From Dehalococcoidia bacterium UBA1123 (GTDB taxonomy: Bacteria; Chloroflexota; Dehalococcoidia; Lucifugimonadales; UBA1123), in NCBI GenBank assembly GCA_002313895.1, contig DCAW01000079.1, positions 1-61,239 on the forward strand: 61,239 nt of DNA. Direction: 5' to 3'. The position numbers were made by a program, and so were the translations under genes. Of this stretch, positions 2,273 through 55,524 are shown piece by piece; the first letter of the stretch is position 1, and each line of letters opens with the position of its first letter. Under the pieces are notes generated by a model. The model made no database searches and was not told the origin of the DNA. It saw nothing but the letters and a program-made list of their open reading frames with translations.

Positions 2273-4105
2273 TTACATCCGTTGTTTGATGGCTTTGGTA
2301 AGCGCTGGAACGACCTCGGCGTAATCGCCAATGATGCCAAAATCCGCGGCCCGGAAGATGGGGGACCGGGAGCTGTTGTTAATGGCAACGATCGTGCCAG
2401 AACGCTGGATTCCAACCGTGTGATTGAACGGGCCTCTTATCGCAACGGCGATATACAGTTCTGGAGCGATGGCCTTGCCTGAAAGCCCGATTTGGACCTG
2501 CCTCGGCAACCAACCCGCGTCCGTTACTTCACGTGTGGCTCCGATGGAAGCTTCAAGAGCGTCGGCCAATGACCTGACCATTGGCAAGTTCTCGGGCCCG
2601 CCGATGCCTTTGCCCACGCCAATCACCCGGCGCGAGTGTTCGAGTTCGACGCCCTCTAGCGATTCGTCTGAAACGGACTCCAGAATCGTGACTCTCGCTT
2701 CGCCCAAGTCATTGATGGGCAGGTCTTGGGTGAGGGGTTCGATTGACCGGTCCGGCTCGCAAGCCGTCAATATGCCAGGGCGCACTGTTGCCATCTGCGG
2801 CGATGTGTTGGACAAGATTGGAGCGACAATGCTACCTCCGAAGGCCGGTTTCAACTGGACAAGTCGGCCTTCGGGATCAGTGTCCAACCCGATGCAATCG
2901 CCCGTGAGGCCCAATCCCAATCGTGCGGCCACCCTCGCAGCCAGGTCTCGCCCGTTCACAGTGGACGGTATCAGCACGGCATATGGGTGATGGGCCTCGA
3001 TGGCCCGTGCCAAGATACCGGTGTATAGTTCTGTGTCGTAGTGTTCAAGTTTGGGGGCGTCAGCGAGGTGAACACAGTCCGCGCCATAGGCGGTGAGTTC
3101 ACCAACGTGGTCTCGGATGCCGTGTCCGATCAGCATGGCTTCGACACGGGAGCCAACACAGCTCGCGAATTTCTGCGCTTCGCCTAACAATTCCAGCGTG
3201 ACGGGCCTGACTCGGCCTCTGAGGGTCTCTGCGACGATCCAAGTTCCGCCGTTGGCGCCTTCGGGTTGGCGAACGTCGCGCGGATCGCTGGGAACTTCGT
3301 CAGCGCGGCGGTCTCCGAACACGCCTCTGGATTCTAGTCTGGCCATGAGTTGGGCGACGGCCTCATCCGCTGGAAGGTCTCGGATGATTACGCCGTCTCT
3401 GGTGGATTCGGTCGAGTACACTTCTCCGACCCACGTCGGAGAGCCTGACACCCCCAGTGGTTCGGTGTCCGATGATATGTCAACGGCGGACAGAGTCTCG
3501 ATTGGCTTGGCTTCTGCCGCTTCCATCTGCTCTCGGCTGGGGTAAATTTCTGGGCCGATCCCTTCAGCGGCAGTGAACACAGCGGGAAGTGGACACAGAA
3601 TTTCTTGATGCCCGTCGTCGTTCAGCCTGGTGACCGTGGCGCTGTCGCCAGCCTCAGAAATCTCAATTCTGGACACGCCCGTAACCTGCGGCAGGTTCAG
3701 CATTTCGGCTAACTCCGGACCAACCTGTCCTGTTTCGGCATCGACGCTGTTAATTCCGCAGAAGATAATATCGAAAGCTTCGCGAGCCAACGCCAAGGAC
3801 AGCGCACGCGCCGTGGCCAACGTGTCAGAGCCTGCGAACGCTCTATCGCTCAGGTGAATTCCGCGATCTGCGCCCAACGCCATGCACTGGACCAGCGCTT
3901 CTCGAGCCTGTGGTGGCCCCATCGTCACCACCACAATTTCGACGGGCATTGACTCTCTAATTATCACGCAAGCGGTCACCGCCTGGAGATCGAAAGGGTT
4001 AACCTCGCTGGGGACGCCCTCGCGCACAATCCTGCGGGTCTCGTTGTCAAATTTGAGCATTGAGACCACGGGGACTTGTTTGACGCAAACAGCGATTTTC
4101 AACAT
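2273..4105 (-). CDS. Electron transfer flavoprotein with beta (EtfB/FixA-like) and alpha (EtfA/FixB-like) subunits fused in one polypeptide
   Basis: 610 aa. The N-terminal part MLKIAVCVKQVPV...NPFDLQA is EtfB-like. The C-terminal half ...IAVAIRGPFNHTVGIQRSGTIVAINNS... is the EtfA FAD-binding region. Confidence 0.85.
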   Translation of the reverse strand: MLKIAVCVKQVPVVSMLKFDNETRRIVREGVPSEVNPFDLQAVTACVIIRESMPVEIVVVTMGPPQAREALVQCMALGADRGIHLSDRAFAGSDTLATARALSLALAREAFDIIFCGINSVDAETGQVGPELAEMLNLPQVTGVSRIEISEAGDSATVTRLNDDGHQEILCPLPAVFTAAEGIGPEIYPSREQMEAAEAKPIETLSAVDISSDTEPLGVSGSPTWVGEVYSTESTRDGVIIRDLPADEAVAQLMARLESRGVFGDRRADEVPSDPRDVRQPEGANGGTWIVAETLRGRVRPVTLELLGEAQKFASCVGSRVEAMLIGHGIRDHVGELTAYGADCVHLADAPKLEHYDTELYTGILARAIEAHHPYAVLIPSTVNGRDLAARVAARLGLGLTGDCIGLDTDPEGRLVQLKPAFGGSIVAPILSNTSPQMATVRPGILTACEPDRSIEPLTQDLPINDLGEARVTILESVSDESLEGVELEHSRRVIGVGKGIGGPENLPMVRSLADALEASIGATREVTDAGWLPRQVQIGLSGKAIAPELYIAVAIRGPFNHTVGIQRSGTIVAINNSSRSPIFRAADFGIIGDYAEVVPALTKAIKQRM

Positions 4106-4249
4106 AGAGAGAAATGGTGTGTGTTCAACGCATGATCGACGAGTTCCAAAACTTCGCCGTGTGGAGCGCGCGGTTTATTAATTGTGACAGGAAGTTCGTT
4201 CATAGGCGCGGGCGTAATAACGGCAGAGGTTCTAGGGAAAAGCGCCAGG

Positions 4250-4491
4250 TCAATTGCCCCGCTCTCGATTGACCTGTTCCCGGATTCGTTGCTTAAAATC
4301 AGGCGATGGCTTCTCTTTCGGTGTCGACCGCAAAAGACCCACAGTTGCGTGCAGGGTGTTGACAATGAGGCGCAAGGTCCACATTTCAAAATGTGTCTAC
4401 TGACCGTGGCAGCGCCACATTGGCCCAACTCGCCATCTAAATAATCAGAAGACATGCCGCGAACTTCGTCGCAGTCGTCATCTGAGCGCAT
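4250..4491 (-). pseudogene. zf-HC2-type anti-sigma factor, apparently frameshifted just after the CxxC
   Basis: MRSDDDCDEVRGMSSDYLDGEL...VSRHILKCGPCAS matches the anti-sigma N-terminal H-x3-C-x2-C pattern. The expected continuation (VNTLHATVGLLRSTPKEKPSPDFKQRIREQVNRERGN, stop at 4250-4252) is in another frame starting near 4360-4368. The tracked ORF 4099..4530 would be a frameshift artefact. Confidence 0.4.
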
Positions 4492-4753
4492 TCCATTGAA
4501 TATTCCAAATAGTTGTGAAACCACGATCAAGTAGCCACCTTAAGTTGAACGGGGTAGCCTCTGCTACTTTAGTTTATGAGGTTGCACCGGTCAACTAACC
4601 TTAGTTTTGCGTTATTGTTGATATACAATTGGATCCAATTTGAATCAGCTAGGCTCGGCTCGATATGATGAGTCCACCAACCGCGATAAGAATTCGTCTC
4701 GTAGAGGCTACGCACAGGGCAATATATTGGCATAGGCTGCCAGAGAAGACCCG

Positions 4754-5273
4754 ATGGAAATCAACAGTTTCGACGATATCGTCGAGAACTACTCTGGACT
4801 TCGTTTACAACGTCGCCGATCGCATGATGGGCAAACCTGAGGATGCGGAAGACGTGTCTCAGGACGCCTTCATATCTGCATACCGCGCATACGAGCGCTT
4901 CGGCGGCGAATCCAAAGTGACGACGTGGCTGTACCGTATTACAGTGAACGCCGCCCTCATGAAGCTTCGCAAGGAGAAAAAGGCCCGGACTCTGACCCGG
5001 ACCGGACTCGATGATGTTGTGATCGCCGACTGGAGCGATGCTCCCGAACGATTCCCCACCAATTCAGAGCTGGGCGCCAGGATCAAAGAGGGCATCGCGA
5101 TGCTCCCTGAAGACCTTCAAGCCACCGTTGTGCTTCGCGACGTTGAAGGCTAGTCGAACTCTGAGACGGCGGAAATTCTGGATGTGACGGTCTCGGCATT
5201 AAAATCGAGGTTGCATCGGGCGCAGGTTCCGCTACCCAAGCACATGGACGAGTTCTTGAAAGCGCAAAGTTAA
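4754..5273 (+). pseudogene. ECF (sigma-70 family) RNA polymerase sigma factor, disrupted by a frameshift and an in-frame TAG
   Basis: The plausible N-terminus MEINSFDDIVENYSG (ATG 4754) is in a different frame from the region-2 core FVYNVADRMMGKPEDAEDVSQDAFISAY...WLYRITVNAA, with the shift near 4790-4800. TAG at 5151-5153 interrupts RDVEG*SNSETAEILDVTVSALKSRLHRA (region 4), which continues in frame to TAA at 5271-5273. Confidence 0.7.
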
Positions 5274-5548
5274 CCTGGAGAAATCACCGCGACGCGAGAC
5301 CTGCCTATCATCTTCCCGATCTTATTGGCCGCGTTGCTCGCCATGATCTTCTTCTCAGGCGCATACGCGATCTCAAAGGGCGCCACGGCCCAAGAATCTC
5401 AAGCTTCCACAACGTCCGTGGCGCCTTCCGGAACTTTCAACCACCTGAATCCTCCCACAAAAGAGACTGAACGATTCGACTGGTGTCAGGACGCGGCCAT
5501 CTGAGTCTGACCGCTGCACTGATGCTGTGTCAACAACGATTCTAACGT

Positions 5549-5962
5549 TCAGGATGGGTCTTTTGCTCTGTCGAACGGCACGACCGCCACCGCGTCGATT
5601 TCGATCAGATACTCTGGCCTCACCAAGCGGCTAACTTCGACGAGTGTGCTGGCCGGGTAGGGACGTTCAAAGTATTCAGCCCGTGCTTCGTGAATTTCTG
5701 AGAGCATAGTCATATCGGTGATATAGACTGTCACCCTAGCGATGTCAGAAACGTTGGCGCCGACGCTTGCAAGCACGGTGTCGATGTTCTTCAACACTTG
5801 CCGAGTCTGAGCTTTGATATCGCCGACGCCCACGAGGTTGCCTTCGGCATCCTGAGAGACGTAGCCTGAGATGTGCAACACCTTGCCCTCAGGCTCCCAT
5901 GCCGCGCCTGAGAATATTCCGAATGGTTCTGGCAATCCTGGAGCATTGAAAGCCTGTGGCAT
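5549..5962 (-). CDS. RidA/YjgF/endoribonuclease L-PSP family protein
   Basis: The family-like core is ...HISGYVSQDAEGNLVGVGDIKAQTRQVLKNIDTVL...VTVYITDM...STLVEVSRLVRPEYLIEIDAVA. The start was moved to ATG 5962, preceded by GGAGGA. Confidence 0.8.
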   Translation of the reverse strand: MPQAFNAPGLPEPFGIFSGAAWEPEGKVLHISGYVSQDAEGNLVGVGDIKAQTRQVLKNIDTVLASVGANVSDIARVTVYITDMTMLSEIHEARAEYFERPYPASTLVEVSRLVRPEYLIEIDAVAVVPFDRAKDPS

Positions 5963-13742: not shown

Positions 13743-14807
13743 CTATTTCCAAACGTCTATTAGCACGCCGCTGTCGAGATCAGACTGGTCGACTATTTCA
13801 CCGATCACGGCACGGGTCTGAACTCCAGACGACTCAAGCTCTGACAACAACTCCGCCGCTTTGTCCGACTGGACGGAGATCAAGAGACCGCCAGAGGTTT
13901 GGGCATCAGCCAGCAATATCGGAGCGTTGTCATACAGCCCGTCAGCAAACGCGGTGTATTTTTCGGCGCTGTTGAGATTTCGGTGGGTTCCGCCTGGCGC
14001 AATACCGGAGTCAACCAGATCGAACACGCCATCCATGAACGGAATGTCGCCGAACCTAAGTCTGGCGCCGACGCCGCTGGCGACGGTCATGCCGTGAAGG
14101 TGACCCAGGAGACCAAATCCGGTGACGTCAGTGCAGGCGTTCACTCCAACACGCATCATCGCCTCGGCGGCGGCTTTGTTGAGAGTTGCCATGATGTCGA
14201 TAGCGTCAGCCAGCAATTGTTCTGCGATCTTTTGCTGCTTGCCTGCCGTAGTTATTATGCCCATGCCCAGTGGTTTGGTCAGGACGAGAGTGTCTCCGGG
14301 CTTGGCGTCGGCGTTCGAGACTTGATTCCCGGGTTTCACGATACCGGTGACGGCCATTCCATATTTGGGTTCCGCGTCATCGACCGTGTGGCCCCCCACG
14401 ATCAGGACTCCAGCCTCAGCCGCTTTGTCTGCCCCGCCTTTCAGGATATTTCCCAAGATGTCTTTGGGCAGGCCGACAGGAAATCCGACGATGTTCAGGG
14501 CGAGAATCGGCTTTCCTCCCATCGCGTAGACATCGCTCAGGGCGTTGGCGGCCGCGATCCGCCCGAAATCGGTAGGGTCGTCTACGACCGGCGGGAAGAA
14601 ATCCACTGTCTGAATCAACGCCAAGTCGTCGTTCATCCGATAGACAGCGGCGTCATCTGCGGTGTTGATTCCGACCAACAGGTTAGGATCGGTGACTGGT
14701 GGTAGCTGACGCAGTACCTGCGCCAGGTCCTCTGGACTAAATTTGGCCGCTCAACCAGCGCAAGATGCAAGCTCTGTGAGGCGGATGTGCTCGTGAATCT
14801 GAGTCAA
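13743..14807 (-). CDS. selD: Selenide, water dikinase (selenophosphate synthetase) with in-frame UGA (Sec) at codon 19
   Basis: Tracked ORF 13743..14678 lacks the N-terminus. Reading upstream in the same frame gives MTQIHEHIRLTELASCAG-U(TGA 14751-14753)-AAKFSPEDLAQVLRQLPPVTDPNLLVGINTADDAAVY. This aligns with E. coli SelD ...IRLTQYSHGAGCGCKISP...DPNLLVG..DDAAVY, placing U on catalytic Cys17. TTG start at 14807. Confidence 0.85.
14706..14726 (-). promoter_or_regulatory. Candidate bacterial SECIS hairpin of selD
   Basis: CUGGCGCAG-GUA-CUGCGUCAG has a 9-bp stem with one G.U pair. It starts 25 nt after the UGA, and its apical loop contains GU about 34-36 nt downstream. Confidence 0.45.
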
Positions 14808-14866: not shown

Positions 14867-16315
14867 CTACATTACTGGGTGGCCTGACGGAGCATAGGCC
14901 GCAAGCTCGCGATTGCCGGGCAGGAATTTGGCGTTGCCCATTTCGCGCTTCATTTCGCCGTCCTCTATGATGATTTCTCCGCGCTGCATCGAGAACACCG
15001 GCTTGCCCAGAACCTCTTTGCCTTCGAACATCGTGAAATCGGCTATACAATGCTGTGCATCGGCGCTGAGGGTGTGGGCCACCGACGGATCGAACAGCAC
15101 GATGTCGGCGTCTGATCCAGGCTCTATCGCGCCTTTTTGCGGGTACAGGCCGAAAATCTTGGCCGGATTTTCGCTCATCACCTGAACCAGCCTAGGAAGC
15201 GTTATGCGTCCGTTGTTCACGCCTTCTTCGTAGGCGACGCACAGCATTTGCTCGGCCCAGTTCCCGCCGAAACTAGCGTCGAAGATACTTGCCTCGGTGC
15301 TCACTTCGGACTGGTCTTCGATGACCGCGCTCTGGCCGCCGGTGGATTTCTGTGACTTCTTGAATCCGCAAAAGTCGCTGGCAATCGTGTCGATAAGTCG
15401 GGAGTCCAGGCCGCGCCACATAGCTTCATTGTCTTCGCGTTCCCGCAAGGGAGGCCCGATTTTCGCCAGCGGGCCGTGGTCGAGCATAGCCTGGTTAGTC
15501 AGGTCGAGGTACTGAGGGCAGGTCTCGCCATACAATCTCAGTCCGTCGCCTTTGAATTTTTCGAGGCTGGCTAGAATCTCCCTTGCGCTCAGGTGGACAA
15601 CGTATAGCGGACAATCCGTGACCGTCGCGTACGTGGCGGCCCGATTGAACGCTTCGATTTCTAGAATACGTGGCTGAGTAGGCGCATAGTATTCTTTTGA
15701 TGTGTGACCTTCGGCAGTGAAGTTATCGACCAGATGGTCGATGCAGTAGCCGTTCTCGGCGTGGACCATCGCGATTCCGCCGTCACGCGACGCCAACTCC
15801 ATCGCTCTGAGCATCTTGTCGTCCGGCATCATCATGCCGCGTCGGGGGTAGGTCATGAACATCTTGAAGGATATGACACCCATCTCGATGAGTCTTGGCA
15901 CCTGGTACTCGACATCATCGTCGCCTACGAGTATCGCGTGGATACCAAAATCGAGATAAGAAGTCTCGTGGGCCTCGTCCAGGAAGCGGTTGACTGCGTC
16001 AAGCGTCGTGCCTTCGATGCCGATCGCGCGTTGGTGTTGGATAAATGGGACGACCGTAGTGATGCCTCCAAATGCGGCGCTGAGAGAGAATGTCTCGATT
16101 CGGTCGGCGTTGATGGGGTGGTTGTGTGCGTCGATTATCCCTGGAAAAACGTAAGCGCCGCTGGCGTCGATGGTCCGCTTCGCGCCGTCATTGGGCAGGT
16201 CTGTGCCCACTGCCTCAATCTTGCCGTCCTTGATAAGCACGTCTTCTCGCGTGACTCCGGTGCCGCGGACCAACAGGCCGCCGGAAATAATGTAATCGGC
16301 TTTCTGTGAATTCAT
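14867..16315 (-). CDS. Cyclic amidohydrolase (D-hydantoinase / dihydropyrimidinase-like)
   Basis: MNSQKADYIISGGLLV...KIEAVG...GAYVFPGIIDAHNHP shows the amidohydrolase metal-site pattern. ATG 16315 is preceded by AAGGAGA. The tracked 655-aa ORF adds a spurious N-terminal extension. Confidence 0.8.
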   Translation of the reverse strand: MNSQKADYIISGGLLVRGTGVTREDVLIKDGKIEAVGTDLPNDGAKRTIDASGAYVFPGIIDAHNHPINADRIETFSLSAAFGGITTVVPFIQHQRAIGIEGTTLDAVNRFLDEAHETSYLDFGIHAILVGDDDVEYQVPRLIEMGVISFKMFMTYPRRGMMMPDDKMLRAMELASRDGGIAMVHAENGYCIDHLVDNFTAEGHTSKEYYAPTQPRILEIEAFNRAATYATVTDCPLYVVHLSAREILASLEKFKGDGLRLYGETCPQYLDLTNQAMLDHGPLAKIGPPLREREDNEAMWRGLDSRLIDTIASDFCGFKKSQKSTGGQSAVIEDQSEVSTEASIFDASFGGNWAEQMLCVAYEEGVNNGRITLPRLVQVMSENPAKIFGLYPQKGAIEPGSDADIVLFDPSVAHTLSADAQHCIADFTMFEGKEVLGKPVFSMQRGEIIIEDGEMKREMGNAKFLPGNRELAAYAPSGHPVM

Positions 16316-16469
16316 TCGACTCTCCTTTGTGGGTAGTGTCGCCAGTATCTTAACGGGCAGCGTCTGGGTGTCAAGGGCGGCGTGATTGAACGCAGACTGC
16401 GGTGACGGTAGAATGTGGACGGCATCGAAAATCAAAACCGTACCATTCTTGGGATTAGGGGAGGACTTG

Positions 16470-17279
16470 ATGACTGAACACTCAATGACAATTGGAAAAG
16501 TTGAACTGGTATCGTTGACCGACGGTGGCATGGGGCCGGCTGCCACGGACTTTTTCCCGGACAGCACAATGGACACCTGGAGATCCGAGTTCCCCGAGCT
16601 CTTGGACACCGACGGCAACATCGGGCTCCGGTTGGGTTCGTTGGCGGTCCGTTCAGGTGGCAAGCTGGTCATTGTAGATACGGGCATGCAGTTTCCAGAT
16701 GGCAGTGGCACGCTCATGACTGACATGGCCGAAAAGGGTGTTGACCGTGTAGCCGTTGATCTGGTGGTGATGACCCACCTGCACGCGGACCACGTAGGGT
16801 GGAACCTGACCAACGGAGCCCCGACATTCCCCAACGCGCGGTACTTGGTTCCCCGGACCGACTGGGACTATTGGACCCAACCCGATGTGCTTGCCAGTGC
16901 CGAGCATGTGCAAAATCAAGTCTTGCCTCTGGAAAAACTGAACATCATGGACCTTATCGAGGACGATTACAGCATCACCGACGACCTGACTACGATCGCC
17001 ACGCCGGGCCACACGCCCGGTCACATCTCCATCGTCATCGTCTCCTCCGGTGAGCGGGGATTTATCCTTGGCGACGTGGTCCACAGCCCGGCCCAGGCCC
17101 ATCTAACAGACTGGAACCCGAGCTTCGACATTGACGGGGAAACATCCCGAAAGACCCGACATGCGATTCTGAGCCAGTTGGAGTCTGACCGATCGGTGGT
17201 GGCGTCAGGTCACTTTCCTGACCCAGGATTCGGCAAGTTCGTCCGAGAGTCCGGCCGCCGAATCTGGCAGGGGGTCTGA
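16470..17279 (+). CDS. MBL-fold metallo-hydrolase
   Basis: THLHADHVGW (HxHxDH motif) and later TPGHTPGH. ATG 16470 follows GGGAGGA. Confidence 0.8.
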   Translation: MTEHSMTIGKVELVSLTDGGMGPAATDFFPDSTMDTWRSEFPELLDTDGNIGLRLGSLAVRSGGKLVIVDTGMQFPDGSGTLMTDMAEKGVDRVAVDLVVMTHLHADHVGWNLTNGAPTFPNARYLVPRTDWDYWTQPDVLASAEHVQNQVLPLEKLNIMDLIEDDYSITDDLTTIATPGHTPGHISIVIVSSGERGFILGDVVHSPAQAHLTDWNPSFDIDGETSRKTRHAILSQLESDRSVVASGHFPDPGFGKFVRESGRRIWQGV

Positions 17280-30472: not shown

Positions 30473-30504
30473 GATGGGCCGTTTGATGCGGCCCATCTTT
30501 TTTT
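30473..30504 (+). terminator. Rho-independent terminator after ltaE
   Basis: GAUGGGCCG-UUUGAUG-CGGCCCAUC followed by U7. Confidence 0.75.
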
Positions 30505-33586: not shown

Positions 33587-33883
33587 TTATCTCAAATCAG
33601 CGATAGTGACTCCACCGTTTCCTTCTGCTGGACTCGCCGCGTAGTGCCGAGTTACCAGCGGATGTTTCGACAGGTATTCAGCCACCGCGCCTTTCATGGT
33701 TCCTGTGCCTTTCCCGTGGATGACCCGCACCCGATGCAATCCGGCCATGGATGCGTCGTTCAGATATTTGTCCAACTTTGACAACGCAGGTCGAACCTTC
33801 ATCTGCCGCAGGTGGACCTCGGCTGACATCGACGCCGTCCTCATCAGCCTTGATGGTTGGTCGTCTCGCCTTCGTGAGGTCAC
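33587..33883 (-). CDS. Smr (small MutS-related) domain protein
   Basis: ...VHLRQMKVRPALSKLDKYLNDASMAGLHRVRVIHGKGTGTMKGAV...GNGGVTIADL. The GTG start overlaps the selA stop (GTGA). Confidence 0.75.
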   Translation of the reverse strand: MTSRRRDDQPSRLMRTASMSAEVHLRQMKVRPALSKLDKYLNDASMAGLHRVRVIHGKGTGTMKGAVAEYLSKHPLVTRHYAASPAEGNGGVTIADLR

Positions 33884-35277
33884 GATGCGGCGTTCGGTTG
33901 AGCAATGTTGTTCAGCGCTTCCCGCAAGTCGCTCTCGTCGCCCGGAAGCACGGTTCTAGGGTCTAGAATAACCGCGTCGTCCTCGATGCGGGCCACGATA
34001 GGCGGGTTGTTGTCCCTCAGACGTTGGGCCATCTTTTCGGCTTCCCCAGGCTGTAGGGATGGGATTCGGGTCACCCAGGTCGGGAGGGTCTCTCCAGGCA
34101 GGCTGCCTCCGCCGATCGCGGACCGGGAAGCGACCGAGACTCCGTTCTGAGCGAAACTGGCCCAGGATTCGGATTTTCGTCGCAGTTCTTCTTCTGTTGC
34201 CGATATCATCCGCCAAATAGGGATTTTTGATGTGGCCTCATCGCGGATGTAATGAAGGACTGTGGCGGCCAGCGCCGCCATGCTCATCTTGTCGATCCTG
34301 ACGGCCCGCGCCAGTGGGTGGCTCGACACTCTGGCAACCGCTTCTTTTTTGCCGATGATGATTCCCGCCTGCGGCCCCCCCAACAGTTTGTCGCCAGAGA
34401 AAAACCCAAGCTCAACGCCGGCGGAAACGCTCTGTTGAGGCATAGGCTCGGGAGCCAACCCATAAGGCACGGTGTCCAGTAGACAACCGCTTCCGAGATC
34501 GTGGAGGACAGGAACGCCTCGACGGTGTCCGACCTCGACCAACTCCTCAAGGGTCGGGGCGTTCGTGAAACCGATCACCTTGAAATTGGATGCGTGGACA
34601 GACAGGATCGCGCCAGTGTTCTCGGTGATCGCCGCATCGAAATCGCGCGCGTATGTGCGGTTGGTGGTCCCGACCTCGACCAGAGTTGCTCCGCTCTGTC
34701 GCAGGACGTCGGGGATTCGGAACCCGCCGCCGATTTCGACGGCCTCGCCCCTCGATACGACTACTTCTTTGCCAACAGCGAACGTCGCCAGAGCCAACAT
34801 GATGGCTGATGCGTTGTTGTTCACGACCATTGCGGCCTCGGCTCCAGTCACCTGACTCATCAATTGAGACATGTGAGATTGCCGAGAGCCGCGCTTGCCG
34901 GTTTCCAGGTCCATCTCCAGGTCGCTGTATCCTGAGGCGGCGCGGTGCATGGCTTGAATCGAATCGTCACTGAGCGGGGCGCGACCAAGATTGGTATGCA
35001 AGATAACGCCGGTGGCATTAATCACGCGCTCTGGCCAGGCGCGCCATCGTTTGCTGGCCTGGTGTTCGATTTCAAAGACCAGGGAAGGGAGATCCGGGGG
35101 ATCGGCCCCTTCTGACACCGCCGCCCTGATTTCTTCGAGATTTTGTCTAATGAGGTCGAGAACCGCATCTCTGGAGTGCGCTTCGATCAGCTGAACGATG
35201 GCGTCTTCCTCAAGAATACGGTTCACGGGAGGGATTGCTCTGAAACCTGATGTCATACTCACAGCGCTCTGATCCAA
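33880..35277 (-). CDS. selA: L-seryl-tRNA(Sec) selenium transferase
   Basis: VINATGVILHTNLGRAPLS and the PLP-lysine motif FFSGDKLLGGPQAGIIIGKK are SelA hallmarks. TTG 35277 and ATG 35256 are possible starts. Confidence 0.9.
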   Translation of the reverse strand: MDQSAVSMTSGFRAIPPVNRILEEDAIVQLIEAHSRDAVLDLIRQNLEEIRAAVSEGADPPDLPSLVFEIEHQASKRWRAWPERVINATGVILHTNLGRAPLSDDSIQAMHRAASGYSDLEMDLETGKRGSRQSHMSQLMSQVTGAEAAMVVNNNASAIMLALATFAVGKEVVVSRGEAVEIGGGFRIPDVLRQSGATLVEVGTTNRTYARDFDAAITENTGAILSVHASNFKVIGFTNAPTLEELVEVGHRRGVPVLHDLGSGCLLDTVPYGLAPEPMPQQSVSAGVELGFFSGDKLLGGPQAGIIIGKKEAVARVSSHPLARAVRIDKMSMAALAATVLHYIRDEATSKIPIWRMISATEEELRRKSESWASFAQNGVSVASRSAIGGGSLPGETLPTWVTRIPSLQPGEAEKMAQRLRDNNPPIVARIEDDAVILDPRTVLPGDESDLREALNNIAQPNAAS

Positions 35278-40500: not shown

Positions 40501-40878
40501 TCAGACAGGGTGAAGCGCAGGATAGACCGCGTGGCTCCTTTGCACGCCACCAGAATGGGACCGGCTATCCGTCACGCGACGTCCAAGCTAGAGAAGGCCG
40601 ACGCTCGCACCAAGATACTATTTCTGGTCAGCGACGGACGTCCTCAGGACAGGGGTTACAGCAGAGAGGGCGTGGAGAAGGAATACGCAGTTCACGATAC
40701 GCGGATGGCCCTTGAGGAAGCGCGGCGCAAGGACATCAACGCGTTCTGTCTCACAGTGGACAAGAACGGCCACGACTATCTTGGGACCATGTGCGCTGAC
40801 ATGGGCTACGAGGTTTTGGATAGCATTTTCGACCTTCCAGAAAGGCTTCTATACCTCTATCGCCGGTTGACGATGTAG
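37600..40878 (+). CDS. Large VWA-domain protein, CbbO/NorD-like partner of the CbbQ-type ATPase
   Basis: 1092 aa. The C-terminal region has YDEWDFRADDYKPRWC, ...FLVDTSAST (MIDAS DxSxS) and ILFLVSDGRPQD. There is a long helical N-terminal region and an acidic linker. The GTG start follows AAGGAGA. Confidence 0.75.
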   Translation: MENQDRSTLEQIQEQFRRFPAPVADEFEKAQAKMPDNMEADSMVKWANAGVEIAEQTVRSWEAAAQYYKVSPQVISYMPFNYFMRWTQCGNDLCKESPTLATAYFEASPEAMSQLRSRHIEAWAALGNSLYKGTWKSSTLACKFFAYSPALMESLTFPELERFVSFLDALSHRSYDLAAECLALGQQIFPLIGDDKTAFIGLATALVDSGWREVKSFFESGAKALPKIDEDQRFRFLKIAERLVQGGGTNIPNVMLETSQALSEVDPEAHSRILTLSEALLEESPAAVPEFIKGCAQIMDRLSLAQVERWYEEGVNLLRQNPDGGLAFFKIESAHSESVLEALSSGVEFDRIKPVMEMYCRGLAGSEIKLAASEDLVSKGIGWVSSESPSTEGSTVFVPTLVDRYPSKDENFGWFKVVSTHQVAHLEFGSFSFEFDEPSTIFQDRRADLEKNKVEKERPEGEEQVEGEGLERAWITDMQRFFNLFEDRKLSLDIFTVVEDGRLDFRVKHEYPGIRAAYSVVQADSHKGRPEIESLPVREALVEFLVRLSLQQYDSIPAPLEYVEQAKQITDIARRVLDATSTVQDAAEATLRIYAIIAAIPNEEVPPEDWEDVDTDEEQQEEYTDPDEMEQLLQQLAEGMEMELRPDGESDYESSEEVEYRGDFKPELVQLLSQLRMQDGQSAGEADGQPITQEQLEELLQNSAELDFQAVEGDIQNSQGLFADNLLKEAGMNLPDNPEFGQGPFVHVDDDGDALEASEPQTFVYDEWDFRADDYKPRWCIVRQKTMQEGDPAFYASTLHNYGGLVSRIRRQFEMMVPETFRRQRKLEDGEDIDIDDLVEAIVDMKTGVSPSEKFYWRRNKIQREVAAAFLVDTSASTAEAIDEGKRTADDWDAPDDPVEYMVWLRTRRGEAARRSYKRIIDVEKEAIVLIVNALEAIGDVYGIYGFSGYGRENVEFYTIKELDEAFSDRVKRRIDRVAPLHATRMGPAIRHATSKLEKADARTKILFLVSDGRPQDRGYSREGVEKEYAVHDTRMALEEARRKDINAFCLTVDKNGHDYLGTMCADMGYEVLDSIFDLPERLLYLYRRLTM

Positions 40879-40899: not shown

Positions 40900-40934
40900 A
40901 GAGGCCGCGAATGCGAATTCGCGGCCTCTTTTTG
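40900..40934 (+). terminator. Rho-independent terminator after the VWA gene
   Basis: GAGGCCGCGAAU-GCGA-AUUCGCGGCCUC (12-bp perfect stem) followed by U5. Confidence 0.8.
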
Positions 40935-50529: not shown

Positions 50530-51723
50530 ATGGGCCTATCTGAGCGCCTGATTTACATGGATCATGCTGCCACAACTGCAGTTAGGCCAGAGGCGTTGGA
50601 GGCCATGCTGCCATACTTCGGCGTCAGCTTCGGCAATCCTTCAAGCATTTACACGCTCGCTCAAGAAGCCCGTAACGCTGTCGATGATGCCAGGCAAACA
50701 ATCGCCGGATTGATTGGGTGCCGCATCAGTGAGTTGATTTTCACCAGCGGAGGCACTGAGTCGGACAATACAGCGCTGAAGGGCGTCGCATTCGCGTTGA
50801 GAAACGTTGGCAACCATATCATCACAACCGCCATCGAACATCACGCGATACTGCACACCTGCCACCAGTTGGAACAGTTTGGGTTCGACGTGACCTACCT
50901 GCCGGTGGACAGGCACGGATTGGTGGATCCGGACGATGTCGCGAAGGCTATCACGGATCGCACGATACTCGTCAGCGTGATGCTGGCAAACAACGAGATT
51001 GGGACCATCGAGCCAGTGGCGGCAATCGCCCGGACCGTGAAGCAAGAAGCCCGCCGTCTCGACAGGAACATACTAATGCACACGGACGCTGTTCAAGGGG
51101 CTGGATTCCTGGACCTAAATGTCCGAGAATTGGGCGTTGATCTCATGAGCCTGTCGGCCCACAAGTTTCACGGACCAAAAGGCGTTGGCGTGCTTTATGT
51201 CAAGCGGGGAACTCCCTTTGAGCCTCAGATGATGGGCGGCGGCCAGGAACGCGAGCGGCGGTCTGGCACGGAGAATGTTCCGGGAATCGTCGGCATGGCG
51301 GAAGCGTTTCGGCTGGCTTGTCAGGAACGTGAGACGACGGCGGCTCGATGCGTTGCGATGCGAGACAGGATCATAGAGGGCCTCCAGGATCGCGTGGAAC
51401 ATGCTCACCTCAATGGGCATCCCGTCGAGAGGCTCCCGAACAATGTAAATATCTCTTTCGAGGCCGTAGAGGGTGAGCCTATACTACTGGGCCTCGACTT
51501 TGCTGGGATCAGCGCTTCCAGCGGAAGCGCGTGTTCGTCGGCCTCGCTCGAACCTTCTCATGTGTTGCTGGCTATCGGTCTTGCCGCAGAACTGGCGCAG
51601 GGGAGTGTTCGTATTACTCTCGGTAAAGACAATACCGACGAAGAGGTTGATTATATGCTGTCGGTGATACCAGACCTTGTTAATCGACTGAGGGCCATGC
51701 CCTCGCTATCAGGTGTTCAGTAA
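50530..51723 (+). CDS. Cysteine desulfurase (NifS/IscS family)
   Basis: The PLP-lysine motif [12 protein letters not shown] and the active-site loop SSGSACSS. Confidence 0.88.
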
Positions 51724-52343: not shown

Positions 52344-52426
52344 AAAACCTACACGATTGATGCCGCAACGAATATAATGAGTGACAGAATCGTCTCTCTT
52401 GTATTTGAACCCCATTGGAGGAACTA

Positions 52427-52756
52427 ATGGCTCACCCTATTGATATCACCGACGACAGCTTCAACGCAGAAGTAATCCAATCTGACACCCCGGTGTTGGT
52501 GGACTTTTGGGCTGAATGGTGTGGCCCGTGCAAAATGATTGCGCCAATCGTCGAGGAACTGGCCGAAGAATTTGGCGACAAGATCAAATTCACGAAACTT
52601 GATGTGGACACCAACCCGCAGTCGGCCACGAACTTTGGGATTCGTGGCATCCCCACCCTGCTCATTTTCAATGGCGGCAAGCCTGTTGAGACGGTGGTGG
52701 GCGCAGTGCCCAAGTCCGTCCTCAAAAAGAAGCTCGACGCGGCTCTGGCTAAGTAA
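52427..52756 (+). CDS. trxA: Thioredoxin
   Basis: VLVDFWAEWCGPCKMIAP active site. About 109 aa. ATG 52427 follows GGAGGA. Confidence 0.9.
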   Translation: MAHPIDITDDSFNAEVIQSDTPVLVDFWAEWCGPCKMIAPIVEELAEEFGDKIKFTKLDVDTNPQSATNFGIRGIPTLLIFNGGKPVETVVGAVPKSVLKKKLDAALAK

Positions 52757-52951: not shown

Positions 52952-53049
52952 GGGAGCGGATGGGGCCTGGTGGCTCCTGCGGTCTTCAACACCGTTGGCG
53001 GCAACCCTGCGGTTGGCGCGGTGGGTTCGACTCCCTCTCGCTCCCGCCA
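52952..53049 (+). tRNA. selC: tRNA-Sec (anticodon UCA), CCA encoded
   Basis: Hand-folded 98-nt tRNA. It has an 8-bp acceptor GGGAGCGG/UCGCUCCC (the last pair is G.U) and a 6-bp D stem GGGGCC/GGCUCC with the 4-nt loop UGGU. The anticodon arm is GCGGU-CUUCAAC-ACCGU (UCA). A long variable arm (CGGCAACC-CUGC-GGUUGGCG), T loop UUCGACU, discriminator G and CCA complete it. The layout parallels E. coli selC. The tracked ORFs 52911..53141 and 52970..53182 are spurious. Confidence 0.85.
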
Positions 53050-53857: not shown

Positions 53858-53897
53858 AACTGAATAGAGGCGGCAATTCTGCCGCCTCTATTCAGTT
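53858..53897. terminator. Perfect 18-bp inverted repeat between convergent genes (bidirectional terminator candidate)
   Basis: AACTGAATAGAGGCGGCA-ATTC-TGCCGCCTCTATTCAGTT lies between the 53413..53697 (+) gene and the UGSC gene (-). Confidence 0.55.
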
Positions 53898-53917: not shown

Positions 53918-54463
53918 TTAGCTCTTCGCCAACAAAATCCTCAGCACATCAGGAGCAGCCTGTGCAGCTTTTTCGCGGATTCCGGCTTCGTCGAGGCTTC
54001 CCAAAGGGTGGGGAAGGACAACGTACGGGTAGTCAGGGATTCCGCCGAGTTTCGCCATCGCGTCTGCGCTCGTTACGAACGGCTCTGTGCAGATTACTGC
54101 GGTGGGAACGTCGCTGCGCTCGAAGGTGATTCCGTCGTGCACACTGCACGACGAGCAGGACCCTCAATCGCCGGAGGAGGTGATGATTACGTCGCACTCC
54201 GCCGCCATCTCCTCAGCCAGGGGAGGTGGGCACGGCCTGGAGGCATTGCCTTTGTTTCGCGCCATAATCGCTTTGAACTCGTATCGATCTGCCAGCACAT
54301 CGCTGATGGCTTCGAGCAACTCCACCGAGTTGCGCTTGCCGTTAGCCAGCAGTCCGATAACCTTGCCATCCAGCGTGTCGGGCCTTTGAGCCACAACTGC
54401 GTGCGCTGGGATGGGTTCTACGGTTGGGTCCAGCACGGCCAACCTGGTTGCGGTCGTCATCAT
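53918..54463 (-). CDS. UGSC-motif selenoprotein (181 aa, Sec at codon 100 encoded by TGA 54164-54166)
   Basis: Tracked ORFs 54164..54463 and 53918..54142 are in the same frame, separated by one TGA plus 7 sense codons. The read-through is ...AECDVIITSSGD-U-GSCSSCSVHDGITFERSDVPTAVICTEPF.... ATG 54463 follows GGGAGG. A SECIS-like hairpin starts 10 nt after the UGA. selC, selA and selD are all in the window. Confidence 0.75.
54133..54153 (-). promoter_or_regulatory. Candidate bacterial SECIS hairpin of the UGSC gene
   Basis: CGUCGUGCA-GUG-UGCACGACG is a perfect 9-bp stem. It starts at +11 after the UGA, with a GU-containing apical loop at about +20 to +24. Confidence 0.6.
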
Positions 54464-54501
54464 CGAACCTCCCTAGAATGATTCAGAAGTCTTCGTGGTT
54501 G

Positions 54502-55524
54502 TTAAAACTGAATCCGTTTCGTGACCGAGCGAGTCCCATTACCCGCGGTCCACAACGGTATTATACTAGAAAACGCTCCGGCTGCGCCGCCTGCAACCAG
54601 CACATTGATATTTTCAGGTTTGGATGCCGTTGAGATCATCTGAGAACTGTCGTCGCTCTCTGGAAGAACCTGACCCTCCGCTCTCCATTCGGCCTCTGTG
54701 CGTTGGGCAAGCTCGAACAACGTCTGTTTCACCTGGTTTTTGGTCCACCCGGCGGCTCTGAAATGTCCGATATGCTCAGGGCAAAGCACGATGTTCAACT
54801 CTCCGTGTCTGGCGCCGATGGCGAACATCCCGTCTCGGAAGCTGTTCAGGATATCCCGCGGCGACTCGCTCTCGTGGTTCGCAACCTGAATCCCCGACAG
54901 CGCAGCGAATATTGTCACCGCGCTTTCGTTTTCGGATAGACCACGCTCGACGTGCAGCGGTTCCCACGGACTCACATTGGTATCCTCGGCCATGCACCAG
55001 GTGTACTTGCCGGGATGGCCCAGAGTTGCCTTGTCGATCTCCCCAGAAGAAGAGCCGGTGGCGTTGATAATTACGAGCCTGATGGCGCGCCCGATGGTAG
55101 CGTTTGCGCGATGGCCCGGGCCGAACACGCTCACGCCGGAGTTGATGCCGATTTCGGAGACCACCGGCCCACCCACTACCATTAGAACCGCCGCGCCCAT
55201 TGTGCTGGCCGTGATCGCGTGGAGATTAAATTCCGGTTCGCACATCGCTTCAACAGCCGTGGCGACGACAGGGAAGTATTCTGGACGACACCCGGCCATC
55301 ACTGCGTTGACCGCGACCTTTTCGGCGGTTATCACGCGTCCTTTCGTTGGCTCGGCGCCGATAACATCGGAGGGCGAACGATGGGCCGCGTCAAGAAACT
55401 CACGCACTAGGTCTTGAGTAGGCGGGACGATTGGAAGACCGTCGGTCCAACCTCGGCCAAAGTAGTCTTCTATAACTTGTGAGGCGTCGTCAAATTCCAG
55501 TATTCGAGATGTCAAGTTGGTCAT
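54502..55524 (-). CDS. Conserved-looking protein of unknown function, upstream operon partner of the UGSC selenoprotein
   Basis: 340-aa ORF with no competing ORF and globular composition. Segments include GRGWTDGLPIVPPT, KVAVNAVMAGCRPEYFP, GPGHRANATIGRAIRL and LGHPGKYTWCMAED. A 38-nt gap separates it from the UGSC start. I cannot assign a family. Confidence 0.7.
   Translation of the reverse strand: MTNLTSRILEFDDASQVIEDYFGRGWTDGLPIVPPTQDLVREFLDAAHRSPSDVIGAEPTKGRVITAEKVAVNAVMAGCRPEYFPVVATAVEAMCEPEFNLHAITASTMGAAVLMVVGGPVVSEIGINSGVSVFGPGHRANATIGRAIRLVIINATGSSSGEIDKATLGHPGKYTWCMAEDTNVSPWEPLHVERGLSENESAVTIFAALSGIQVANHESESPRDILNSFRDGMFAIGARHGELNIVLCPEHIGHFRAAGWTKNQVKQTLFELAQRTEAEWRAEGQVLPESDDSSQMISTASKPENINVLVAGGAAGAFSSIIPLWTAGNGTRSVTKRIQF

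Follow-up and report, generated by a model that had tools for sequence, protein, structure and literature searches.

The 'UGSC-containing protein' was described in 2007 by Zhang & Gladyshev as a selenoprotein of unknown function, encoded in Hyphomonas neptunium (ABI76733.1) and in metagenomes (PMC1976440), and UGSC-containing proteins were reported by these authors in the GOS (Global Ocean Sampling) and Sargasso metagenomes. In 2008 it was counted among the most abundant selenoprotein families of the GOS data, with 255 selenocysteine (Sec) forms and 21 cysteine (Cys) forms; it was called a protein with a 'likely Trx-like fold', and some sequences were found fused to a domain named 'Unknown_1' (PMC2398784). 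Current reviews list the UGSC family together with the model NF041046 (PMC9312934, PMC13188914). Here we analyze a gene of this family on the minus strand of a 61,239-nt stretch of DNA from Dehalococcoidia bacterium UBA1123 (contig DCAW01000079.1), referred to below as the window and numbered along its forward strand. The gene shares with the described family the GD-U-GSC motif, the alternation of Sec and Cys forms, a length of ∼180 aa, a hairpin of the selenocysteine insertion sequence (SECIS) type after the UGA and marine abundance. It differs from that family in nothing essential, and represents the SAR202/Dehalococcoidia ortholog group within it. Because the UGSC family has been in the literature since 2007–2008, the locus is a correct rediscovery of a described family, an ordinary and known case of recoding in a marine SAR202 bacterium.

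We conclude with high confidence that positions 54463 to 53918 are one gene, that it encodes a selenoprotein of ∼181 aa belonging to the known UGSC family, that its UGA codon 100 is decoded as Sec and that its product is likely a relay for a partner protein encoded directly upstream. At the level of sequence comparison, both the recoding and the RNA element that goes with it are established. Two open reading frames (ORFs) are visible in the DNA, 54164..54463 (99 aa, from ATG) and 53918..54142 (74 aa, from GTG). As the initial annotation had stated, they lie on the same strand and in a common frame, and the gap between them consists of the TGA at 54166..54164 and seven sense codons (GGG TCC TGC TCG TCG TGC AGT). 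The read-through product, ...VIITSSGD*GSCSSCSVHDGITFERSD..., spans 181 codons and places Sec in the context ...SSGD-U-GSCSSCSVHDG...; the tryptic peptide spanning Sec would read (S)SGD-U-GSCSSCSVHDGITFER. As its 'start', the downstream ORF has only the GTG that forms the loop of the hairpin discussed below, and this GTG lacks a Shine-Dalgarno sequence; the upstream ATG is preceded by GGGAGG. These start signals are as first proposed, with the reservation that initiation perhaps occurs at 54460 instead of 54463: the spacer after GGGAGG is 4 nt for the ATG at 54463 and 7 nt for the second ATG at 54460, and the true start may be the latter because the spacing favours it.

Membership in the 'UGSC family (seleno)protein' model, suspected initially from the motif alone, is confirmed by profile searches. 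The translation with U replaced by C matches the NCBIfam equivalog model of that name, NF041046, with 144.5 bits (cut-off 125; profile positions 1–146 of 147) and the Pfam model PF24696 'UGSC' with 189.9 bits (cut-off 25; profile positions 2–171 of 172), and each alignment extends from end to end, through the UGA. A homolog search covering 5.8 billion proteins returned mostly fragments of 98–100 aa that end in ...SGD, where gene callers had stopped at the TGA, with a separate ORF of 73–75 aa called downstream; full-length homologs with Cys, or 'W', at the Sec column were also among the matches. Among 60 full-length homologs the residue in that column is Cys in 58 and W in two, and the DNA of both 'W' entries (P0001 and P0009) carries TGA at that codon. 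The Sec (TGA) forms are collinear orthologs of the Cys forms, so that homologs do continue across the UGA column with Cys or Sec. Counts over the motif columns in these 60 homologs are G 60, D 60, C 58/W 2, G 59, S 58 and C 59. The initial annotation had described a U-x2-C-x2-C redox motif, and its UxxC portion is upheld by the near-invariance of GD-[U/C]-G-S-C; the third Cys occurs in only 25 of the 60 homologs, and the UGA-bearing loci L086 and L090 have Gly or Ser in its place. In these alignments the family-defining motif is GD-[U/C]-G-S-C, and U-x2-C-x2-C is not a family feature.

A scan of relatives with one genome per species gave 229, of which the best 80 are all Dehalococcoidia, SAR202 or Chloroflexota metagenome-assembled genomes (MAGs). 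The window belongs to SAR202 by sequence, since the closest public relative (L005) is a SAR202 MAG with 92% identity. In the window and 84 related loci the TGA occupies the same codon (85/85 sequences) and has 72 or more in-frame sense codons after it. The TGA-bearing relatives, 58–92% identical at the protein level, contain no further stop and keep the frame, and TGA is also found at the Sec codon in six more divergent loci. Because the residues 3′ of the TGA are conserved while their codons vary synonymously in the 85 sequences, the downstream part is translated in this frame.

These data bear directly on the reading in which the TGA is a true stop, leaving either two small genes or a pseudogene created by a nonsense mutation. 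That is how public gene callers annotate the locus, most entries being the short fragments and separate downstream ORFs mentioned above. A stop is nevertheless difficult to reconcile with its retention at an identical codon in 85 plus six sequences over such a range of identity, with purifying selection on the downstream residues in the same frame, or with a second ORF that could begin only at a GTG inside a hairpin loop. The Cys homologs, moreover, are single collinear proteins, and one Pfam model matches both halves. Homologs do not consistently end at the position of the TGA, and the 74-aa part was never found as an independent gene elsewhere, always following the first part in frame. We regard a true stop as extremely improbable and as already effectively refuted.

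Given a single recoded gene, the identity of the inserted residue is the next question. The window contains tRNA-Sec, selA and selD, as had been noted at the outset, located here by ARAGORN/Rfam and TIGRFAM profiles. The tRNA-Sec gene lies 869 nt past the UGSC stop codon and is oriented towards the UGSC gene, and the same convergent arrangement, at 0.1–2.3 kb, is seen in 13 of 39 Dehalococcoidia loci sampled (e.g. L005, L007–L009, L063–L078). The selD gene is itself a selenoprotein gene, with the active site ...ELASCAG-U-AAKF, and its UGA is followed by a 24-nt spacer and a 9-bp hairpin, CUGGCGCAG-GUA-CUGCGUCAG. The G-U-A triloop of selD and the G-U-G triloop of the UGSC gene hint, by their sequence, at a shared SelB recognition motif used at two spacings. 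When the window was scanned crudely for further UGA-recoded genes, only selD and the UGSC gene were credible. The genetic code is not reassigned, because 8 of the window's 27 family-supported genes end in an ordinary TGA stop.

A near-cognate or suppressor tRNA carrying Trp, Cys or Arg, or a reassigned code, might read the UGA as something other than Sec; two database entries, P0001 and P0009, do translate the codon as W, and the case for Sec is a comparative one and not experimental. We consider this very unlikely. The W entries derive from TGA-containing DNA and reflect the choice of code made by the pipeline, and the use of TGA as a terminator in the well-supported genes speaks against reassignment. 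The presence of tRNA-Sec, selA and selD, with tRNA-Sec adjoining the gene in a third of the sampled loci, the Cys at the aligned position of homologs, which is the signature of Sec/Cys pairs, and a conserved hairpin linked to the UGA all favour Sec. SelA and the Sec-containing SelD, both encoded in the window, would convert Ser-tRNA(Sec) to Sec-tRNA(Sec), and SelB, encoded outside the window, would presumably bind the 17-nt hairpin described below and deliver the charged tRNA, a step that we infer.

The hairpin itself, CGUCGUGCA-GUG-UGCACGACG, is a perfect 21-nt element that begins 10 nt past the UGA and is present in the minimum-free-energy fold. Counting the U of UGA as 1, the loop G is at position 23 and the loop U at 24, which bears out the initial annotation of a perfect hairpin ten nt after the UGA (54153..54133) with a GU-containing loop ∼20 nt away. 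For bacterial SECIS elements the apical loop is expected some 16–37 nt from the UGA (the bSECISearch range), and the apical-loop G at +23 lies inside it. Folded alone, the hairpin has a z-score of −3.46, and 0 of 200 shuffles are as stable; its 60–76-nt context is unexceptional, with z-scores near −1.4 to −1.5. In the window, only four loci carry a perfect hairpin with a stem of 9 bp or longer and a 3–8-nt loop, compared with ∼1.5 hairpins expected from an order-1 Markov model.

The constraint falls on a 17-nt core, UCGUGCA-GUG-UGCACGA, that starts 12 nt after the UGA. Across the 85 sequences, synonymous entropy drops to 0–0.1 bit at codons +5 to +9 (TCG TGC AGT GTG CAC), compared with 1–1.8 bits at the surrounding codons for Ser, Gly, Thr, Val and Pro. 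The Ser codons are instructive: all 85 sequences have TCG at Ser +5 and AGT at Ser +7, and four codons each are in use at Ser +2 and Ser +4. Because synonymous entropy collapses at codons +5 to +9, the 17-nt element (54151..54135) is, on the alignment, constrained at the RNA level. Conservation and covariation among UGA-bearing orthologs thus extend to part of the 9-bp stem: they are found for the inner 7 bp (17 nt), where divergent members covary, and not for the outer two pairs, which are unsupported (at pair 18–36 of alignment A5, only 19 of 70 sequences have a standard base pair).

Pairing is maintained by compensation in the divergent members. L075 has C-G>U-A and L087/L088 have G-C>A-U, in each case through two synonymous changes, and pairing is retained despite a changed peptide in L090 (U-A>A-U, peptide SSSSLLD) and L086 (U-A>G-U, peptide SSGSLLD). 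In a 15-sequence sample, picked so as to include hairpin variants, 99% of cells are paired and double changes occur at 3 of 7 pairs; 0 of 500 shuffles and no slid register equal this pairing. The first two loop positions (G, U) are invariant and the third varies among G, A, U and C. Three Cys forms (L091–L093) do not have the hairpin, among them L092 with its similar peptide CGSCSSCTVVD. The structure is therefore kept beyond coding constraint and is linked to the presence of the UGA.

The minimal SECIS of E. coli fdhF is a 17-nt upper stem-loop located 11 nt from the UGA, with loop residues G23/U24 and a bulged U. The UGSC hairpin resembles it in lying inside the ORF directly 3′ of the UGA, in its 17-nt upper element, in a 12-nt spacer (11 in fdhF) and in the invariant G23/U24, and differs from it in having a triloop and a perfect helix of 7–9 bp without the bulged U.

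It might be argued that the hairpin serves another purpose, such as ribosome pausing or message stability, or simply mirrors coding constraint, its position after the UGA being incidental. It does overlap the codons of the conserved peptide S-C-S-V-H-D, the assignment to SelB is an inference, and a scan of the window at Rfam gathering thresholds returned only tRNA and tRNA-Sec and no SECIS family; we know of no general bacterial SECIS model in Rfam. Protein constraint, however, is unable to freeze six-fold and four-fold degenerate sites, pairing is preserved by compensation where the peptide has changed to SSGSLLD or SSSSLLD, and Cys forms with similar peptides, such as L092, have no hairpin. 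The agreement of size, spacing and loop G-U with the fdhF element and the 9-bp hairpin with a G-U-A triloop after the UGA of selD argue in the same direction, and we assign very little probability to a role other than the recruitment of SelB.

Turning to the protein, the fold predicted here departs from the 'likely Trx-like' (thioredoxin-like) assignment in the literature. An AlphaFold2 (AF2) model was made for the Cys homolog P0002, 51% identical to the window protein, from the 60-sequence alignment. It has a predicted local distance difference test score (pLDDT) of 94.5 and a beta-alpha x5 topology with [U/C]GSC at the N-terminus of the helix that follows strand 3. From this homolog model the fold of the UGSC protein is predicted to be flavodoxin-like, not thioredoxin-like. 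Thioredoxin, AhpC/TSA and peroxiredoxin (Prx)-like selenoproteins share with UGSC a UxxC/CxxC motif at a helix N-terminus, and the predicted beta-alpha x5 arrangement, with the motif after strand 3, would distinguish UGSC from these Trx-fold redox proteins. We rejected a thioredoxin fold, in which CxxC/UxxC follows strand 1, on the basis of the motif position and topology in the P0002 model. No Trx-fold protein is among the top 50 Foldseek matches of the model, and no Trx-family hidden Markov model (HMM) matches. A PDB sequence search with the UGSC profiles gave nothing meaningful (ARSA1, E = 0.045; PB1, E = 0.21).

A weak but recurrent similarity is found to the Sec region of the glycine, sarcosine, betaine and D-proline reductases, represented by the GrdB, GrdF and PrdB profiles TIGR01917, TIGR01918 and TIGR04483. 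Residues 84–165 of the window protein align with GrdB profile positions 331–406 (E = 1e-4), and weak GrdB and PrdB HMM matches recur in 23 and 19 of the 60 homologs, respectively. GrdB, GrdF and PrdB resemble UGSC in having a UxxC motif, a separately encoded second subunit and, in some operons, a thioredoxin-reductase gene. GrdB differs from it in length (∼430 aa compared with ∼180 aa), the UGSC partner has no detectable similarity to the pyruvoyl proenzyme subunits GrdE and PrdA, no grdA, grdC or grdD lies near the UGSC gene, and UGSC is carried by aerobic bacteria of marine and soil habitats instead of Stickland fermenters.

As far as sequences can indicate, the strongest functional clue is genetic and consists of a near-obligatory partner, a conserved 340-aa protein. 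Its gene probably is co-transcribed with the UGSC gene because its stop codon lies only 38 nt upstream of the UGSC start. The partner is present in 81 of 84 SAR202-type loci (e.g. L002, 4902..5963). Of 70 informative loci of the Cys form, which come from soil and other metagenomes, 63 have it as the immediate neighbour in the same orientation. In the Cys-form loci it is mostly 3′ of the UGSC gene, and the pairing thus survives a reversal of gene order. The partner family is large, with 6,653 representatives at 50% clustering (E ≤ 1e-3), and has the invariant motifs GWTDGLPxxPPT, MAGC and GHPGK-x3-C. Sequence searches found no Pfam, NCBIfam or PDB relative, and an AF2 model of the partner (pLDDT 83.5) is without a convincing structural neighbour; marginal Foldseek matches to class I fumarate hydratase (E = 1.6e-3, template-modelling (TM) score 0.25), Toblerone-fold amidohydrolases and MmgE/PrpD were rejected. 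The partner is also found fused to a second copy of itself. In locus L001 (1529..2504) gene calling splits it into two ORFs (124 and 179 aa), and query residues 135–139 are shared by the tblastn pieces; a frameshift or assembly error is likely here, rather than a second recoding site.

Domain fusions connect the pair to redox chemistry. UGSC is fused to the partner in P0344 and P0366, and in P0310 and P0317 the post-UGA half of UGSC precedes it, these being Sec-form fusions truncated at the UGA. In P0330, P0340 and P0380 an AhpC/TSA redoxin is fused to the partner in the place of UGSC, an arrangement of sequences that suggests an equivalent redox role for the two. P0356 joins a UGSC half and the partner to the catalytic chain of ferredoxin-thioredoxin reductase (FeThRed_B). 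In the Cys-form locus L092 of Amycolatopsis sp. (3030..5825 of QJPO01000003.1), the genes form an operon trxB-partner-UGSC, in which trxB matches TIGR01292 with 359 bits, above cut-off, and the partner occupies 3968..4984. The UGSC protein of this locus has a C-terminal NifU-like CxxC extension; the NifU domain PF01106 is present in 7 of the 60 full-length UGSC homologs. Adjacency of a thioredoxin reductase (TrxR) gene is rare among the 80 Cys-form loci (2 of the 39 that are sufficiently flanked), and we take this linkage as a weak clue only. Thioredoxin, NifS, GGT, a methyltransferase and DUF1501 are syntenic in only 8–30 of 90 loci and were rejected as members of the system, their synteny being confined to subsets.

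Taken together, the partner adjacency, the domain fusions and the trxB operon suggest that UGSC is most likely a selenol/thiol redox-relay domain serving the partner enzyme. In such a relay, U-G-S-C at the helix N-terminus of the modelled fold could cycle between a selenol/thiol and a selenenylsulfide state and would be recharged by a donor of the thioredoxin-reductase or ferredoxin:thioredoxin-reductase (FTR) type. More speculatively, UGSC might not be a stand-alone antioxidant but the selenol/thiol electron relay of an oxidoreductase with two components, widespread and so far unmodelled, in which the partner is the catalytic subunit; UGSC would then be a miniature relative of the GrdB/PrdB Sec domain, the pair performing a GrdB/PrdB-like reductive cleavage in aerobic marine SAR202 bacteria with electrons from TrxR/FTR-type reductases. 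We put this forward tentatively and think it more probably wrong than right in this full form.

Several observations weigh against the overall interpretation of a Sec-containing relay for the partner. The argument for Sec insertion, here and in the family as a whole, comes from comparison and not from 75Se labelling or a Sec-containing peptide, and a motif search of the 61-kb window did not find selB, which is assumed to be present elsewhere in the genome. Among 70 distinct close relatives there is no covariation in the hairpin because it is invariant, and no more than five divergent sequences supply the compensatory changes. A lower helix that includes the UGA itself, with 84% of cells paired, shows no covariation in the same 70 relatives and was dropped from the structure. 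The fold was modelled on a homolog of the Cys form at 51% identity and not on the window protein, and Foldseek with that model retrieves generic flavodoxin-like, Rossmann-like and P-loop domains (TM ≤0.52). The GrdB/PrdB profiles score far below their cut-offs (TIGR01917, 21.3 compared with 602.2 bits; TIGR01918, 15.6 compared with 65.45 bits). TrxR adjacency is found in only four loci overall.

Features of the partner-UGSC locus and of the selenocysteine machinery in the window
Feature	Position	Strand	Basis or remark
UGSC-family selenoprotein gene	53918..54463	-	181 codons from ATG 54463 (180 from ATG 54460); TAA 53920..53918
In-frame UGA, codon 100, Sec within GD-U-GSC	54164..54166	-	TGA in all 85 and six divergent loci; Cys in 58/60
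Shine-Dalgarno-like GGGAGG, 5′ of tandem ATG ATG	54468..54473	-	direct reading of sequence
SECIS-type hairpin, 9-bp stem; 17-nt core 54151..54135, G-U-G triloop 54144..54142	54133..54153	-	fold, synonymous entropy, compensatory changes
GC-rich perfect hairpin, 15 bp, CUGAAUAGAGGCGGC-AGAAUU-GCCGCCUCUAUUCAG	53860..53895	-	23 nt past UGSC stop codon
340-aa conserved partner	54502..55524	-	stop codon 38 nt 5′ of UGSC start
tRNA-Sec, anticodon UCA	52952..53049	+	ARAGORN; Rfam RF01852, 67.6 bits
selA, L-seryl-tRNA(Sec) selenium transferase	33880..35277	-	TIGR00474, 542.8 bits (cut-off 267.9)
selD, selenophosphate synthetase, UGA 14753..14751	13743..~14800 (start approximate)	-	TIGR00476, 351.7 bits, post-UGA part

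The GC-rich hairpin downstream of the UGSC gene is probably the transcription terminator of the partner-UGSC operon; a consensus terminator scan made no call on it because its T tail is poor. It is one of the window's four loci with a perfect hairpin of 9 bp or longer, and the two that remain besides the SECIS-type hairpin are probably terminators as well: AGGCCGCGAAT-GCGA-ATTCGCGGCCT at 40902..40927, after a 1092-aa ORF ending at 40878, and GATGGGCCG-TTTGATG-CGGCCCATC at 30473..30497, near the end of an aldolase gene. Past tRNA-Sec lie a thioredoxin gene (52415..52756), a 205-aa ORF without assignment and a gene for a NifS-type cysteine desulfurase (50530..51723), a block that is syntenic in 17 of 90 loci. 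Directly upstream of selD, a dihydropyrimidinase/hydantoinase-like ORF on the minus strand (14867..16834; 655 aa from TTG) begins to match its models only at residue ∼178; either the start as listed lies too far upstream or the protein may have an unassigned N-terminal extension of ∼175 aa. Elsewhere on the minus strand, a 610-aa ORF (2273..4105) matches ETF beta models over residues 1–260 and alpha models over ∼290–608, and on these matches appears to be a fused EtfB-EtfA gene.

For annotation, the consequence is that the locus should be treated as one selenoprotein gene, where public calls split or truncate nearly all of its relatives. The biological novelty of the gene itself is small, since lists of the most abundant marine selenoproteins have included UGSC from 2008 on. 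As a by-product of the analysis, the uncharacterised and very widespread partner gives a handle on UGSC function, and its fusions with UGSC, an AhpC/TSA redoxin and the ferredoxin-thioredoxin reductase beta chain assign the pair to thiol/selenol redox chemistry. In the deep ocean, recalcitrant organic matter is degraded to a major extent by SAR202 bacteria. A Sec-dependent enzyme that is kept across this group, often beside tRNA-Sec, may merit biochemical attention.

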